Assembly: GCA_951406725.2 (NCBI GenBank)
Contig: OX597827.1
Coordinates: forward strand, 23,622,001-23,686,000
Reading direction: 5' to 3'
Length of the DNA stretch: 64,000 nucleotides
Source: Octopus vulgaris
Taxonomy: Eukaryota
The stretch's first letter is position 1. Each line of letters starts with the position of its first letter. Below are positions 1,561-63,657 of the stretch, in pieces. The notes beneath the pieces are model-generated. The model ran no database searches, was not told where the DNA came from, and saw only the letters and a program-made list of their open reading frames with translations. Both the position numbers and the translations under genes were made by a program.

Positions 1561-1630
1561 ACACTACGATCGTTTCATGGCTGTACAATTCGTAATAATT
1601 CGAGTTATGGTTACAGTCAATCTTCAGGTT
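1561..1630 (-). ncRNA. Minimal type I hammerhead ribozyme motif (weak stem I)
   Basis: Minus strand AAC CUGAAGA UUGACUGUA...UACAGCCAU GAAA CGAUCG UA GUGU: intact core, stem II with one mismatch, palindromic stem III ACGAUCGU, GUA triplet, only 2-bp stem I. Confidence 0.6.
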
Positions 1631-1903
1631 AATTGAAATATCTAAAATATAATCAGAAATATTTAAACAATATTTTTAAGATATAAATAATATAATAATT
1701 TTACTTATAATAAACTCTATTATCAAACTAGAAACATAAAACTTAACAATTAAATCTGATTTTTCCCTGTAAGTTTGGATTTATTCCCTAATATTTTATT
1801 ATATATATATATATATATATATATATATATATATATATATATATATATATATATATATATAGATATAGATATATATATAGATATATATATATATGCGTGT
1901 TAA

Positions 1904-2108
1904 GGCGGCGAGCTGGGAGAAACGCTAGCATGTCTGTCGTTACGTTCCGAGTTCAAATTCCGCCGAGGTCGACTTTGCCTTTCATCTTTTCGGGTTCGGT
2001 AAATTAAGTACCAGTTACGCACTGGGGTCGATGTAATCGACTTAATCCGTTTGTCTGTCCTTGTTTGTCCTCTATGTGTTTAGCCCCCTTGTGGGTAGTA
2101 AAGAAATA
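1904..2108 (+). mobile_element. tRNA-derived SINE family A (ggcggcgagctggcagaa... head; Meta-domain-like core), internally deleted
   Basis: B-box-like gagttcaaattcc and core gtcgactttgcctttcatc..gggt..taaattaagtaccag shared with more than 10 copies in the window. Confidence 0.85.
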
Positions 2109-3677
2109 TATATATATATGCATGTGTGTGTGTGTGTCTGTGTGTGTGTGTGTGCGCGTGTGTGTATGTGTGTGTGTGCGTGTGTGTGCGTGCATGTGTG
2201 TATTTGTGTGTGTGTTTTCGTGTGTGCGTGCGTGTGTCAGTGTATGTGTGTGTATGTGCGTGTGTATGCGTATGCGCGCGCGTGAATGTATAAGAGTTGA
2301 CACGTAAACATTACTGGTACTATTTTCATTCCTTCCATTTGTTTTTCTTATTTTTATTTTCCCCCTGCATATTCAATGTCCGGAATAACGTAGCAACAAG
2401 ACCCCCGCCCCACAAAATATGCAAAACATATATATGTATGTATGTATGTATGTATATATATATATATATATATATATATATATATATATATATATATATA
2501 TATATATATATATATATAAAGGAAACGCTGTTGCGTGGTGTATTATGAAAAACAATGGAAAACAAAATAATATAAATAAATATGAAATAAAAATATAATC
2601 GAAAATATATAATTTCAAAAAAAATTTCTTAGAATTGGGATTTTAAAGGTACGTATGTGTGTATGTGATTCACGTTGAGTTTGAACTTTTGAATCTAATT
2701 TAATTCTGTATAATACCAAAATAAAGTTTGCATGCATATATTTATATATGTATATATATATGTGTATATATATATATATGTATATATACATACATATATA
2801 TATATATACATACATATATATATATATATATATATATATATATATATATATATATATATATATATGTGACCAAATGAAATCGTCTTCTGTGTCTAATTCT
2901 CTTATTTATGTTTTTCTTTATTTTTTGTTATTTAAATGAACTTTTCGATCGACTGCCTGTCGCATCCATTTATATACTTGCACCGCTACTATGTTGGCCT
3001 CTGCTTTCCACAGCTTTCCATGGCGGCCACCTTTTTATTATTTCTAAATAAACGAAACAAAGGCTGCAGTGGAACTTATTACCGAAATTGTTGGATGCCA
3101 TTTGACCTGCAAGAAATAGAAGCTAAATATCATTGAAATCGCAACTTAACTTTATAAAATATATAAAGTCTACCAAATCGAACTAAATCAGTAATACCAA
3201 CGACGCTTCTACTTCACCCAACACCATTACCATTCACCCTTCCTACAAGTGATGTCATCATTAGATCCATCACCAGAATCTGCAGTTTCCCAAAGATGTG
3301 GAACATAAACATCCGTGCTTTCACTCATTTCAGCTTCTTCTCTCACATGTGAATATTTTCACAAGACATCCACCACTGCTGTTATTAACAACACCAGAGA
3401 CAGCCAATTACGGTCGATCCTCAAACGCTACGAACACATCAGATACACACACACACACACACACACACACACACAGAAGAGAATAGCACAAGTGTATAAC
3501 ATTCAAAACATACATAGAGGACACAGTGGAACAAAGAAGACAGAGTAAAGAAAGCGAAACTAGCAACAACCATATTGAGAGAAGCCATTTAGTCAAATGA
3601 CAGCATTTAGTCAAACATATACAAGAGGGAGTCAACGAGGAAGCATCTATATGTTCGGTCGACTTGCTAGAAAATTG

Positions 3678-4105
3678 GGATCTTTTCGGTTTGAACGGCA
3701 GTTTTTAACAGTTTTTAGGTAACTAAAAAATTTTAAACTTCGTATACTGGTAGAATGTGTTTATAAAACATCTTTTTCTCTTGGATTTATTGAGAAAATT
3801 CTATAGTTTGTAAGATATTCGTTGTTTTGGTTTTTTTTTCAATTTCTGCAATTTCAACCAATCACTGACGTCTATTGAGGTACAAAACATTCTGTGCTGT
3901 ATGAATATGTTCCTCGTTTAAGAAACAGATTGGGTTTATTTACATTTGTGAAGAAAAAAAGATACCCTTCCCCCACCCCTAACCCTAACTAACCCTAACC
4001 CTAAAACAGATTGAAATGCAATAGATCGATACTAGGGTCATAATTATGGGTGACAATTTCATATGACACCGCTAGAAAAAACTGTCGTTCAAACCGAAAA
4101 GATCC
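3678..4105. mobile_element. MITE family M1 (GG..CC termini, 8-bp TSD; Merlin-like) with internal (CCCTAA)n
   Basis: TIRs ggatcttttcggtttgaacggcagttt / aaactgtcgttcaaaccgaaaagatcc; TSD gaaaattg at 3670-3677 and 4106-4113. Confidence 0.9.
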
Positions 4106-5015
4106 GAAAATTGTTGCCAAATCTCACGCAAATTCCACCCAGCAGCAATAAAACAGAAAGAACACATCGGCCAATGTAATCTCTAATACATAAAAGAACC
4201 GGTAATTTTTGGTTATCGACAAGAGATTGGATTAAAAGAGATCCTTTTGATTCAATACTCCAACACAGTGTTGACTTTTGGCCTCCTCAATAGCCATGAA
4301 ATGATTTGTTATAAAAATATTATCAGATTCAATAAGTTGTTTTATCTTTTCACTTTTTTAGGGGGGGGGAAACAAATTTTTAAGATAAGGGAGATAACCA
4401 AAAGTATCGATGTTTCTCATAAAACTTGGGGAGTTAACCCAATTTTTTAATGAGGGTTAGATAACCAAAATGTACCAAAAACATACGATATGGGCACGGC
4501 TGGAACACCGTTGATAAAACGTATGGGTCTAAAGAACAACAAGAGGAGTGTTAAATCTAACATAGATGCATGGTTTTCACTCAAAAGATGTAGATTTGCG
4601 AAATAAAATGCATGCTTTCGGATCTGGAATAATCTTTGTGATGAGGTTGTAGAGAAAATGATTGGTAATTCCACCAAATACAACAAGGAAAGGAAAAGAA
4701 TTGTTCATTTTTATTTATTTATTTAAGATTAAGAAAATATTTTATATTCTGGGCCCGGCGTGACGAGTTACGTCTGCTGGTATAAGAAGTGCCGATAACA
4801 AGAAATTTATGAACCAGACAAGGAAGGAAAGAGCAAACGAACAAACGAACGAACGAAAATAGATAGATAGAGAGAGAGAGAGAGAGAGAGAGAGAGAGAG
4901 AGAGTATAAGAGAGAGAGAAAGAGAGGAGAGAGAGGAAAAAGGGAAAGAAATACAGGAGTACAGAAATTGTGTATATTATATATATATATATATATATAT
5001 ATATATATATATAGC

Positions 5016-5121
5016 CATTTGTCTCCATTTTCCATTTCTCTTATGTGTGTGTGTGTGTGTGTGTGTGTGTGTGTGTGTGTGTGTGTGTGTGTATAAGAGA
5101 AATGGAAAATGGAGACAAATG
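5016..5121. repeat. Perfect 29-bp inverted repeat flanking a (GT)n tract
   Basis: catttgtctccattttccatttctcttat (5016-5044) vs ataagagaaatggaaaatggagacaaatg (5093-5121). Confidence 0.9.
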
Positions 5122-5145
5122 CACAAGATGTTATTTAAATCATAT

Positions 5146-61745: not shown

Positions 61746-61889
61746 GGCGACCTTGTGTTTCAGAAACAAGCTTCTTACCACACAGCTATACCTGCTCCTC
61801 ATCATCAGGCCGGTCACACTACAAAAATAATTGAAGCTGATTTTTCATTGATGAACCATTTAGAAAAATACTGCAAGCCTGGCCCAGTT

Positions 61890-62140
61890 GGTGAGTGTGT
61901 TATGCTCATTATTGTAATGTTGTGGGTTCAATTCCTGGCCTAACCAATGTGTTGTAGCTTTGAGCAAAACACTTCATTTCGCATTTCACAGTCTACTCAA
62001 CTGTAATGACTATCAACCCAGTGCCAGTGCAGCCTTCTCTCTCCCCTTAGCTGTCACACTCTGGATGCTTTGTGAGTCGAAGGGTGGGAAAACCAAGAGG
62101 GTGTTTGTGTTTACTTGAGACTCCACAGACACCTGAAAGA
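61890..62140 (+). mobile_element. SINE family D relative, degraded
   Basis: gtgggttcaattcctg...ttgagcaaaacacttcatttc...cagtctactcaactg. Confidence 0.55.
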
Positions 62141-62649
62141 ATTAGTGAAAGTACAGTACATGTTATTAAGCCATTATGTCCTCACAGGAGATTGATAACT
62201 ATACTGAGCTTAGGTAATTGGAGGCTTTCAATCAGTTACATTGCATAACTTAAAGTGCCGGTAAAAAAAATGCCTGATTCTTAATATGAATTCATGTGTT
62301 GAAACAAACCTTGTGTTTTGGTGGGGTCATTATGCCAATAATAAACACACACACACACACACACACACACACACACACACTCGTTCAATATCACTTCTTT
62401 ATTGTTTGTCAATTGGTTAAATATCTAACCGACAAATTGATCGTTTGTTGAATGTGCCGGTTAAATGGTTATTACTGTTGTATTTCCTCGTCATATAGAT
62501 GTCAGACGAGCGGCTAACTTCGCATTATAGCTTGTTACAATTTTGTACTTCCAGACAACAATATTATACTGGGTGTATTCTAATTTCTATATTTTAGAGA
62601 TGAGGAATTCTGTACATTGGATGGATATGTCCTCATCTAGTTTGTTGTA

Positions 62650-62695
62650 ACCACAACGTTTCGGCTGATTTACTCTCCAGCCTTCATCAGGTGTC
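62650..62695 (-). ncRNA. Family H hammerhead, intact core
   Basis: GACAC CUGAUGA A GGCUG GAGAGUAAAU CAGCC GAAA CG UU GUGGU (one stem I mismatch). Confidence 0.75.
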
Positions 62696-62781
62696 CTGAG
62701 GAAATTTTGAGCCCAACCCTGGGTTCTCATTCCCAAAGTAATTTTTTTTTTGCTGGTGTTATTATTATTATTATTATTATT

Positions 62782-63347
62782 GAGTGAGAGAGCAGTGCAT
62801 ACCATCAAAATGACATTGGGGTAAAATATACGAAGCCCAGTATACCCATCATGACTACCCGTCTGATAAGGGTACACCAGGCACATGCATCACAACTAAA
62901 TGTGTGCGACATGGTGATCTCATATCAAGATAAACAGCGCATGACCTTGCAGATGGGGCCCAGTTAGAATTTTCTTCTGGTCGGGTAACCCATCCCACTC
63001 AAAAGGTCCCTGCTTAAGGGTTGTTTAAGGATGTTGAATGAAACACCCGTGTTTCCAAAGGTGAATTATTCAAACCCCAAAGAATTCCTCTCAACACATG
63101 GCTATGATGCTCCCCCACTACTTCTGCTCATGATCAGAGATGCACATATCGTCAGCCACTAAGGGACATGGTCAACTGGTTAAGGTCAAACAACTGACAA
63201 GCAAATCTGTGGTGTTGAGCAGAATATTTGCTGTAGCCCATCTTTTATACCAAGGCAAAACAATGTACATGATATCACTTCCAATCAAAGATTAGAAGCC
63301 ATGAGTAGAAGCCATGAGAGCCACTGTCTGGTACTGCATCAAAGCAT
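62782..63347. mobile_element. ~565-bp unclassified element inserted in a (TTA)n microsatellite
   Basis: Flanked by (tta)n on both sides; splits the family H linker. Confidence 0.6.
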
Positions 63348-63610
63348 ATATTATTATTATTATTATTATTATTATTATTATTATTATTATTATTATTATC
63401 ATTATTATTATCATTATTATTATTATTATCATTATTATTATTATTTTTTCAAGGCACTGCCTGGAATTGAACTCAGAATCCTGTGGTTCAATTCCGAGTT
63501 CAATTCCAGGCAGTGCCTTAAATAAATAAATAATAATAATAATAACAATAACACCAGCAAAAAAATACCTTAGGAATGAGAACCCAGGGCTGGGTTCAAA
63601 ATTCCGCCAT

Positions 63611-63657
63611 GACACCTGATGAAGGCTTGGAGAGTAAATCAGCCGAACCATTGTGAT
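63611..63657 (+). ncRNA. Family H hammerhead, degenerate (GAAC-CA-UU)
   Basis: GACAC CUGAUGA A GGCUUG GAGAGUAAAU CAGCC GAAC CA UU GUGAU. Confidence 0.55.

Follow-up and report, generated by a model that had tools for sequence, protein, structure and literature searches.

The window analysed here, a 64,000-nucleotide stretch of the Octopus vulgaris genome (contig OX597827.1, positions 23,622,001 to 23,686,000), contains nine copies of type I hammerhead motifs belonging to five families, C, E, F, G and H. All nine had been listed in a preliminary description and were found in place, each with its parts in the order stem I, core, stem II, GAAA, helix III, cleavage base and stem I. The family majorities of H, G, E and C fit a test for the type I arrangement (core CUGANGA, GAAA, and UH around stems I to III); family F is the exception through a U4C change, its commonest core starting with CCGA (17 of 40 copies) and only three of 40 copies having CUGA. 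In all five majorities helix III is perfectly palindromic. Only four of the nine window copies have both core and helix III as in their own family, and no hammerhead family was among the 101 Rfam matches to the window (E up to 1).

The family E hammerhead (1561..1630, minus strand; core CUGAAGA at 1627, helix III ACGAUCGU) has a U-U at the base of stem II and a 2-bp stem I, as does its family majority. It lies in a young, 5'-truncated Penelope-like 3' end (1413–1752, minus strand) which is followed by a 54-nt inverted piece (1751–1804). The family C hammerhead (5146..5229, minus strand) is damaged in its core (CUGAUAA at 5225) and reads ACACAUGU in helix III; it belongs to a decayed Penelope-like end (5092..6078, minus strand) carrying a remnant of a GIY-YIG-type endonuclease (5543–5854). 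Family F is represented twice. The copy at 33704..33771 (plus strand; core CCGAUGA at 33732, helix III ACUUCGAAGU) no longer has the 5' strand of stem I, and is predicted to form a hairpin with its inverted half copy at 33704–33723 (-38.2 kcal/mol). The second (59373..59548, minus strand) retains helix III ACUUCGAAGU next to a broken core (AAGAUGA at 59548). The single family G hammerhead (46732..46856, minus strand) is intact, with core CUGACGA at 46851, helix III ACAGCUGU, a long stem-loop II and a 4-bp stem I, and is situated within an element piece at 46606–47297.

Four motif sites belong to family H. The first (36407..36622, minus strand) contains an intact hammerhead at 36460–36505, with helix III ACGU at 36500, and an inverted head piece at 36570–36622. 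The second (57036..57281, minus strand) consists of a tRNA-like head, (AAT)n and a body, its helix III being ACGU and its core broken (UCGAUGA at 57102). The remaining two are the arms of one inverted insertion (62585..63711): core and helix III (ACGU) are intact at 62690 in the left arm (62585–62766, minus strand), helix III is lost at 63616 in the right arm (63544–63711, plus strand), and an insert of about 570 bp separates them. The four sites described earlier thus stand, but represent three insertions. The helix III letters reported earlier likewise hold at the listed sites, with ACGU in three of the four H copies, except that the C copy had been compared with ACACGUGU, whereas the family majority is ACAUAUGU (23 of 34 distinct copies).

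The motifs are more frequent than expected by chance. Counts were made with a descriptor that does not require palindromy; it is blind to E, through the U-U at the base of stem II, and to most C and F copies, so that all counts are lower bounds. Four matches were obtained in the window, three of them palindromic (36500, 46851 and 62690); the fourth, at 50046, looks like a chance match. Among 20 block-wise dinucleotide shuffles of the window, 18 gave no match and two gave one, none palindromic, and the counts therefore do not match those of shuffled sequence. In 1 Mb of stretches taken at fixed positions there were 29 matches versus 2, 3 and 1 in three shuffles, and 14 palindromes of at least 4 nt versus 0, 1 and 0. 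The commonest helix III was a perfect palindrome in 10 of the 12 clusters with at least two members, and in six of the eight clusters which had not been targeted beforehand. At least 12 clusters coexist within 1.8 Mb.

Judged by sequence, families E, C and F sit in the ends of Penelope-like elements and are tied to the element protein gene: all three lie downstream, on the same strand, of a C-terminal GIY-YIG endonuclease domain or its remnants. For family E, 35 of the 40 places scored hold the endonuclease and the downstream UTR in one piece, and the UTR continues to the hammerhead. The 40 best genomic matches of this family are 98–100% identical. Its endonuclease scored just under the Pfam GIY-YIG cut-off (E 1.8e-4; 22.2 bits, cut-off 22.6), and Atlas look-alikes at 0.94–0.97 include RVT_1 + GIY-YIG clusters. 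Pfam gave no match for the reverse transcriptase part, nor did a PDB sequence search of solved structures; its likely identity as a reverse transcriptase follows from the Atlas lead and from known motifs. An 816-aa gene beside E at locus L154 was rejected as the E gene, being of a different Penelope-like family and on the opposite strand. The family C remnant, some 320 nt upstream of the core, scored 95 bits against an endonuclease profile built from real genomic copies, two of whose seven seeds were out of frame, so that matches were checked by reading the translations. The endonucleases of C and of the L221–L256 family are 48% alike. Family F showed the endonuclease end only, at loci L278 (E 7e-8) and L368 (E 0.006). 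No same-strand upstream endonuclease was present in the loci examined for G and H, and no protein gene could be tied to either; nevertheless, both likely lie in Penelope-like ends, G probably being such an end itself and H presumably a short non-autonomous rider. Endonuclease matches near G at L084, L350 and L339 were left out of the count, since they lay downstream or on the opposite strand, and extension of G upstream reached its own inverted copy. An inverted partner occurs at 14 of 26 H loci and six of 30 F loci, and C, G and E loci likewise contained 5'-truncated copies accompanied by inverted or partial tandem partners.

We consider it very probable that these are short-helix-III type I hammerheads of Penelope-like 3' ends, present as truncated and partly decayed copies. 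In an active element two hammerheads would likely pair through the palindrome, exchange stem I strands and then cut the element's own RNA. From the geometry of the hammerhead junction, A15.1 of one chain would pair with U16.1 of its partner, which would consequently also provide the cleavage base and the 3' strand of stem I; a symmetric homodimer would therefore need a self-complementary helix III. Stem I would decide which chains can pair. Different palindromes would be the outcome of any symmetric design as lineages drift, related lineages keeping the same one. The use of a short palindromic helix III in dimers, suggested in the preliminary description, has already been published (PMC4209133; PMC3088659, legend to Fig. 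S8), and the palindromes are this published symmetry, likely needed for cutting in pairs.

Alternatively, the longer helices III of E, G, C and F (8–10 nt) might be 2–3 bp hairpins with tetraloops in monomers helped by protein, with palindromy needed only in part. The G copy alone is indeed predicted to fold into something like a hammerhead three-way junction, its helix III being 2 bp long, and the hammerhead of one Poseidon element required protein (PMC11167929). However, one family after another has self-complementary loop letters (AGCU, GAUC, AUAU, AAUU and GUAC), for which a hairpin has no need, and axolotl motifs of this build cleave far better as dimers (PMC7229834), making the monomer reading unlikely.

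Nearest-neighbour estimates of dimer energy favour pairing within families. Homodimers of the five window families are predicted at -13 to -34 kcal/mol and all ten heterodimers at -5.3 kcal/mol or weaker, so these families are predicted to be mutually orthogonal. Pairing specific to the family, as proposed earlier, is thus borne out by prediction, but the palindrome alone is not the key. ACGU by itself contributes a predicted -1.7 kcal/mol; H and K share it, as C and L256 share ACAUAUGU, and in both pairs stem I is predicted to be mismatched. Specificity would therefore come from helix III together with the swapped stem I, which is predicted to supply much of it. This orthogonality, and the coexistence of so many clusters, could be read as selected self-recognition, co-resident families having been pushed to different combinations of helix III and stem I which prevent heterodimers. 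Helix III and the swapped stem I would then form a code keeping at least 12 Penelope-like families and the rider H, with its more than 5,000 copies, from cutting or activating one another in trans. Against this, the heterodimers G/L264 (-22.7 kcal/mol; common helix III ACAGCUGU) and E/L305 (-16.0 kcal/mol; common helix III ACGAUCGU) are predicted to be as good as their own homodimers, palindromes are reused, and drift alone would give orthogonality. Moreover, the published partner is a neighbouring tandem copy on the same RNA, which makes discrimination needless (PMC6765202, PMC4209133). We regard both self-recognition and such a code as quite improbable.

The suggestion that distinct palindromes act as family-specific dimerisation keys fared poorly. 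Four of the five recur in other families within 1.8 Mb, namely in the four pairs named above, and an alternative perfect palindrome, the mark of compensatory change within a family, was found in none of 176 distinct copies. Among the first 100 H copies listed, the central CG is gone from 42. CA, which breaks the pair, stands there in 19 and TG, which keeps a wobble, in 14, so that CA shows no depletion relative to TG (p 0.49); there is no GC or AT centre, and the two TA centres are attributable to double CpG decay. The palindromes mostly decay in genomic copies, then, with CpG decay proceeding without regard to pairing. Given reuse, decay and the lack of compensatory change, they cannot be regarded as family passwords. 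In three families, G (p 0.025), C (p 0.026) and F (p 8e-26), the core and helix III are somewhat better conserved than the remaining positions, a difference that H (p 0.13) and E (p 1) do not show. Such a pattern is compatible with selection among source elements or with a BLAST bias, selection on inserted copies being possible.

The same decay bears on a proposed role in the host, whereby intact copies read through in pre-mRNA or lncRNA would become sites of cleavage activated by partner transcripts from their own family. Copies 36500, 46851 and 62690 pass the descriptor, partners are plentiful (at least 5,225 matches to a 28-letter pattern of H), and the avoidance of introns and exons by Xenopus retrozymes would fit insertion into genes being costly (10.64898/2026.07.22.740005). 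Nevertheless, CpG decay blind to pairing and the fact that no host exon was identified in the window leave partner-dependent cleavage of host RNA unsupported. Inverted partners are predicted to fold back at -190 to -278 kcal/mol, so that at the H loci possessing one the motif would be sequestered on read-through. Furthermore, minimal hammerheads cleave poorly even as dimers (PMC4209133), and eight of nine Xenopus dimer elements were without cleavage (10.64898/2026.07.22.740005). We judge a host function to be highly improbable.

Type I hammerheads that are minimal or have a palindromic helix III were described in the pseudo-LTRs of metazoan Penelope-like elements by Cervera and de la Peña in 2014 (PMC4209133), who also cover dimer cleavage and many families per genome; the same class was treated by Lünse et al. 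in 2017, as cited in PMC6765202. The octopus motifs resemble that set in several respects: their parts follow the type I order, helix III is short and palindromic, a further base comes after A9, one genome holds many consensus families, mostly as single truncated copies, opposite-strand pairs lie 100–700 bp apart, and the motif sits downstream of an RT-GIY-YIG gene; the U3-A8 core variant of that set also occurs here, in L272. The sequences of the octopus families do not occur in the examined text of that study. Unlike that set, F, K and the L264 family have mostly U4C cores, and G, C and several others have long structured loops II. There is also a likeness to animal non-LTR retrozymes, hammerhead-bearing (type I) non-coding repeats akin to Penelope-like ends (PMC7229834; 10.64898/2026.07.22.740005); the axolotl motifs, which work as dimers, share the U-U at the base of helix II with E (PMC7229834). 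Unlike retrozymes, no head-to-tail hammerhead array was present among 125 tandem rows in the window, where partners are inverted or absent.

The present families add five to this described class and correct the idea of palindromes as passwords. They further offer a natural panel for trans action and partner choice, with the palindrome the same and stem I different in H/K and C/L256, and both the same in G/L264 and E/L305; a literature search for such a test listed no paper containing both terms, heterodimer and Penelope.

In family E, to which the intron test was confined, a GT..AG intron of 898 nt ends 14 nt before the core, and splicing would leave the proximal stem I unchanged. The copy at 1413..1804 keeps the last 111 nt of this intron, and the spliced junction was found in 25 genomic E copies, beside intron-containing ones (control 0). 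As in Penelope of Drosophila virilis (PMC4209133), helix I of E is 2 bp long, helix II is irregular, helix III carries a palindromic insertion and a spliceosomal intron ends just upstream of the hammerhead; E differs in its acceptor position with stem I unaffected, its intron length and its UTR of about 2.2 kb. In one Poseidon element the hammerhead was helped by protein, insertion in vitro did not require it, and no RNA-seq read had its end at the ribozyme's site (PMC11167929). Young, with near-intact genes and both spliced and unspliced copies, family E is a workable system for studying the part that the ribozyme plays in the element cycle (compare PMC11167929, PMC8557442).

Family H appears to be a short element headed by a tRNA-like segment. 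Compared with the A- and B-box consensus, the head has similar motifs at tRNA-like spacing, and 14 of 26 loci contain the head motif. Neither ARAGORN nor Rfam recognised it as a tRNA; a relaxed search for the head gave only two candidates, which makes it a weak control. Its loopless ACGU helix III, its inverted-pair insertion and the lack of a tRNA call set it apart from the SINE-like promoter and hammerhead repeats of schistosomes, which it resembles in being short, with an A-/B-box-like head followed by a hammerhead (PMC6765202).

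All nine motif copies claimed for the window were confirmed in place, namely those of hammerhead families H (36500, 57102, 62690 and 63616), G (46732), E (1561), F (33704 and 59509) and C (5146). Five are damaged, and the motifs at 62690 and 63616, though present, are the arms of one inverted insertion rather than separate copies. A descriptor requiring the core, stem II, GAAA, UH and stem I, and leaving palindromy free, gave four hits in the window (three palindromic), against none in 18 of 20 shuffles and one in the other two. In a 1 Mb sample, made up of 100 fixed-position stretches of 10 kb each, 29 hits were found versus 2, 3 and 1 in three shuffles, with palindromes of at least 4 nt in 14 hits versus 0, 1 and 0. 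Judged from sequence, the motifs are real and unremarkable representatives of a class already known. Genomes that each hold many consensus families are described by Cervera and de la Pena (2014; PMC4209133), together with hammerhead pairs on opposite strands, palindromy at positions 15.2-16.2 and in loop 3, and low activity, dimers included. Related work (Lunse 2017) is recounted in a review (PMC6765202), and axolotl motifs carry U-U at the base of helix II (Cervera 2020; PMC7229834).

The preliminary description proposed that a distinct palindromic helix III could be the dimerisation key of each family. A relaxed descriptor, run on 306 records totalling 1.82 Mb that comprised the window, the targeted loci and the 1 Mb sample, returned 171 distinct hits, with 12 clusters of at least two and 71 singletons. 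Helix III palindromy is general, since a perfect palindrome is the commonest form in 10 of the 12 clusters (6 of 8 untargeted), the remaining two being ambiguously parsed. Uniqueness did not hold: ACGU is common to H and K, a further family that outnumbers H by 14 to 6 in the 1 Mb sample, ACAGCUGU to G and the L264 family, ACAUAUGU to C and the L256 family, and ACGAUCGU to E and the E-related singleton L305. For C, ACAUAUGU (23 of 34 copies) replaces the palindrome originally given for 5146. The 10-mer palindrome of F was not met in another family within the 1.82 Mb. Palindrome sharing follows kinship for no fewer than three of these four pairs: L264 is 76% like G across 59 nt, stem II of L305 resembles that of E, and the endonucleases of C and locus L221 are 48% alike.

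Within families, an alternative perfect palindrome, as expected of compensatory change, occurred in 0 of 176 distinct copies, which are best-match copies and query-biased. A 28-letter pattern of H matches 5,225 places; in the first 100, all on C1, a hand count of the central dinucleotide gave CG 58, CA 19, TG 14, TA 2 and other 7. Since the pair-breaking CA is not rarer than the wobble-keeping TG (p 0.49), these changes are read as ordinary CpG decay. In G (p 0.025), C (p 0.026) and F (p 8e-26), the core and helix III are better conserved than the remaining non-CpG positions; in H and E they are not. The better conservation in G, C and F counts against our own reading; it can be produced by selection among source elements, and also by BLAST seeding.

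From junction geometry, pair A15.1-U16.1 of a type I dimer would form between chains, so that the partner would supply base 17 together with the 3' stem I strand. The dimer model itself is from PMC4209133, and Perreault (2011; PMC3088659) describes a stem III and loop III whose palindromy yields a dimer stem of 10 bp. Energies were computed for real copies (window for H, G and E; loci L141 for C and L285 for F) as nearest-neighbour sums of helix III and both stems I, junction terms left out. Predicted homodimers came to -16.3 (H), -20.3 (G), -13.4 (E), -13.6 (C) and -33.5 kcal/mol (F). As all ten heterodimers lie at -5.3 kcal/mol or weaker, the five families are predicted to be orthogonal; family-specific pairing is retained to this extent, and the palindrome as its key is not. 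ACGU alone yields -1.7 kcal/mol, and the H-K pair, owing to stem I mismatches, gets no further than -1.7. C with L256 gives -8.0 kcal/mol, while the G-L264 (-22.7) and E-L305 (-16.0) pairs are as good as the respective homodimers. In the model, the palindrome would be a symmetry condition for the homodimer, with much of the discrimination coming from stem I. With palindromes recurring, no compensatory change and stem I predicted to discriminate, the key fails as originally stated.

Family H, about 330 nt and non-coding, has a tRNA-like head followed by (AAT)n, the hammerhead and then a tail (window 57036-57281, minus strand; L329:1330-1640; L023). The head bears motifs resembling the A- and B-box consensus. 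An inverted partner is present at 14 of 26 independent loci (30 examined, 4 set aside as partner arms). H may be a SINE that a Penelope-like element mobilises; no autonomous partner was found. Among the literature titles listed, none dealt with an element that has a tRNA head, depends on Penelope and carries a hammerhead, nor with a heterodimer test; supplements of the cited papers could hold the same families.

Family E is young, with its best 40 genomic places 98-100% identical. Its AT-rich 2.2-kb upstream stretch joins a C-terminal endonuclease without a break, both in one piece at 35 of 40 scored places, and one place on C4 has the hammerhead end and endonuclease on one strand, 1.7 kb apart. 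The endonuclease matches Pfam GIY-YIG just below the cut-off, and Atlas look-alikes of a 636-aa open frame include clusters that combine RVT_1 with GIY-YIG. An 898-nt GT..AG intron (L152:6985-7882; window part 1642-1752, minus strand) is based on one contig that skips it, the short side aligned over 23 letters; the joined form occurs at 25 genomic places (control 0). Its acceptor is 14 nt upstream of the hammerhead core, whereas in the D. virilis motif the intron ends at helix I (PMC4209133). An uninterrupted 816-aa frame with reverse transcriptase and C-terminal GIY-YIG-type domains (L154:4604-7051, minus strand) adjoins an E copy and was assigned to a different Penelope-like family; no hammerhead of the window's five families lies downstream.

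Family C retains an endonuclease remnant at 5543-5854, on the strand of its hammerhead. For F, L278 has the end of an endonuclease domain (E 7e-8) some 1.2 kb upstream, and L368 gave a weak match. Copies of G occur inverted and as partial tandems, and no protein gene was tied to the family in the loci examined. The window families' truncated copies, tails, inverted partners and retained introns agree with the Penelope-like build described in PMC8557442. A Poseidon hammerhead was found to be protein-assisted, and insertion in vitro was possible without it (Frangieh 2024; PMC11167929). A 2026 preprint (10.64898/2026.07.22.740005) reports that retrozymes avoid introns and that one of nine dimer elements cleaved.

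Host regulation, by cleavage of read-through transcripts through partner transcripts, gained no support. H decay ignores pairing, and a transcript running through an inverted pair would fold back on itself (predicted -191 to -278 kcal/mol, two loci tested). The 33704 copy is itself in a predicted hairpin (-38.2 kcal/mol), and in both settings fold-back would hide the motif. The window, spanning 23622001-23686000 of C14 in a 2.8 Gb genome, is rich in microsatellites and short repeats, and its repeats resemble those of cephalopods; its 30 open frames of at least 130 aa are mostly microsatellite read-through, and no host exon was identified among them. Other features are a mariner-type transposase fragment (24577-25047, plus strand; Pfam HTH_48, E 2.8e-8), a 15-nt minisatellite of 33 copies with one frame open per strand (28131-28622), and long near-perfect inverted repeats (33452-33638 and 39745-39826), likely miniature inverted-repeat transposons, whose Rfam miRNA matches score below gathering. 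About 7 kb before the window, an open frame resembling a gene's last exon (L164:1587-2567, plus strand) is presumably that of a PLP-dependent amino-acid decarboxylase; Pfam gave no significant match.

A repeat at 545-721 and 25859-26035 (99% identical; also 26034-26120) has GAAA upstream and CUGAAGA downstream, a permuted order conserved in 12 matches among the loci examined. No convincing stems were found around these elements, and the repeat could be a half-core or a type II/III motif. An abundant family at 50541-50680 conserves CUGAUGA, with no GAAA downstream, in 17 matches. The U4C core (CCGANGA) is the commonest form in F, K and L264 (e.g. window 33732; L177:2574; L264:8390), and some CUGA copies of these families may derive from it by CpG decay; its activity in vitro is reported to be considerably lowered (PMC3088659). 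Families with a U3-A8 core variant and a 6-nt helix III occur at L272 (8152 and 7652) and L065 (978 and 260), with the helices ACGCGU and, probably, ACAUGU.
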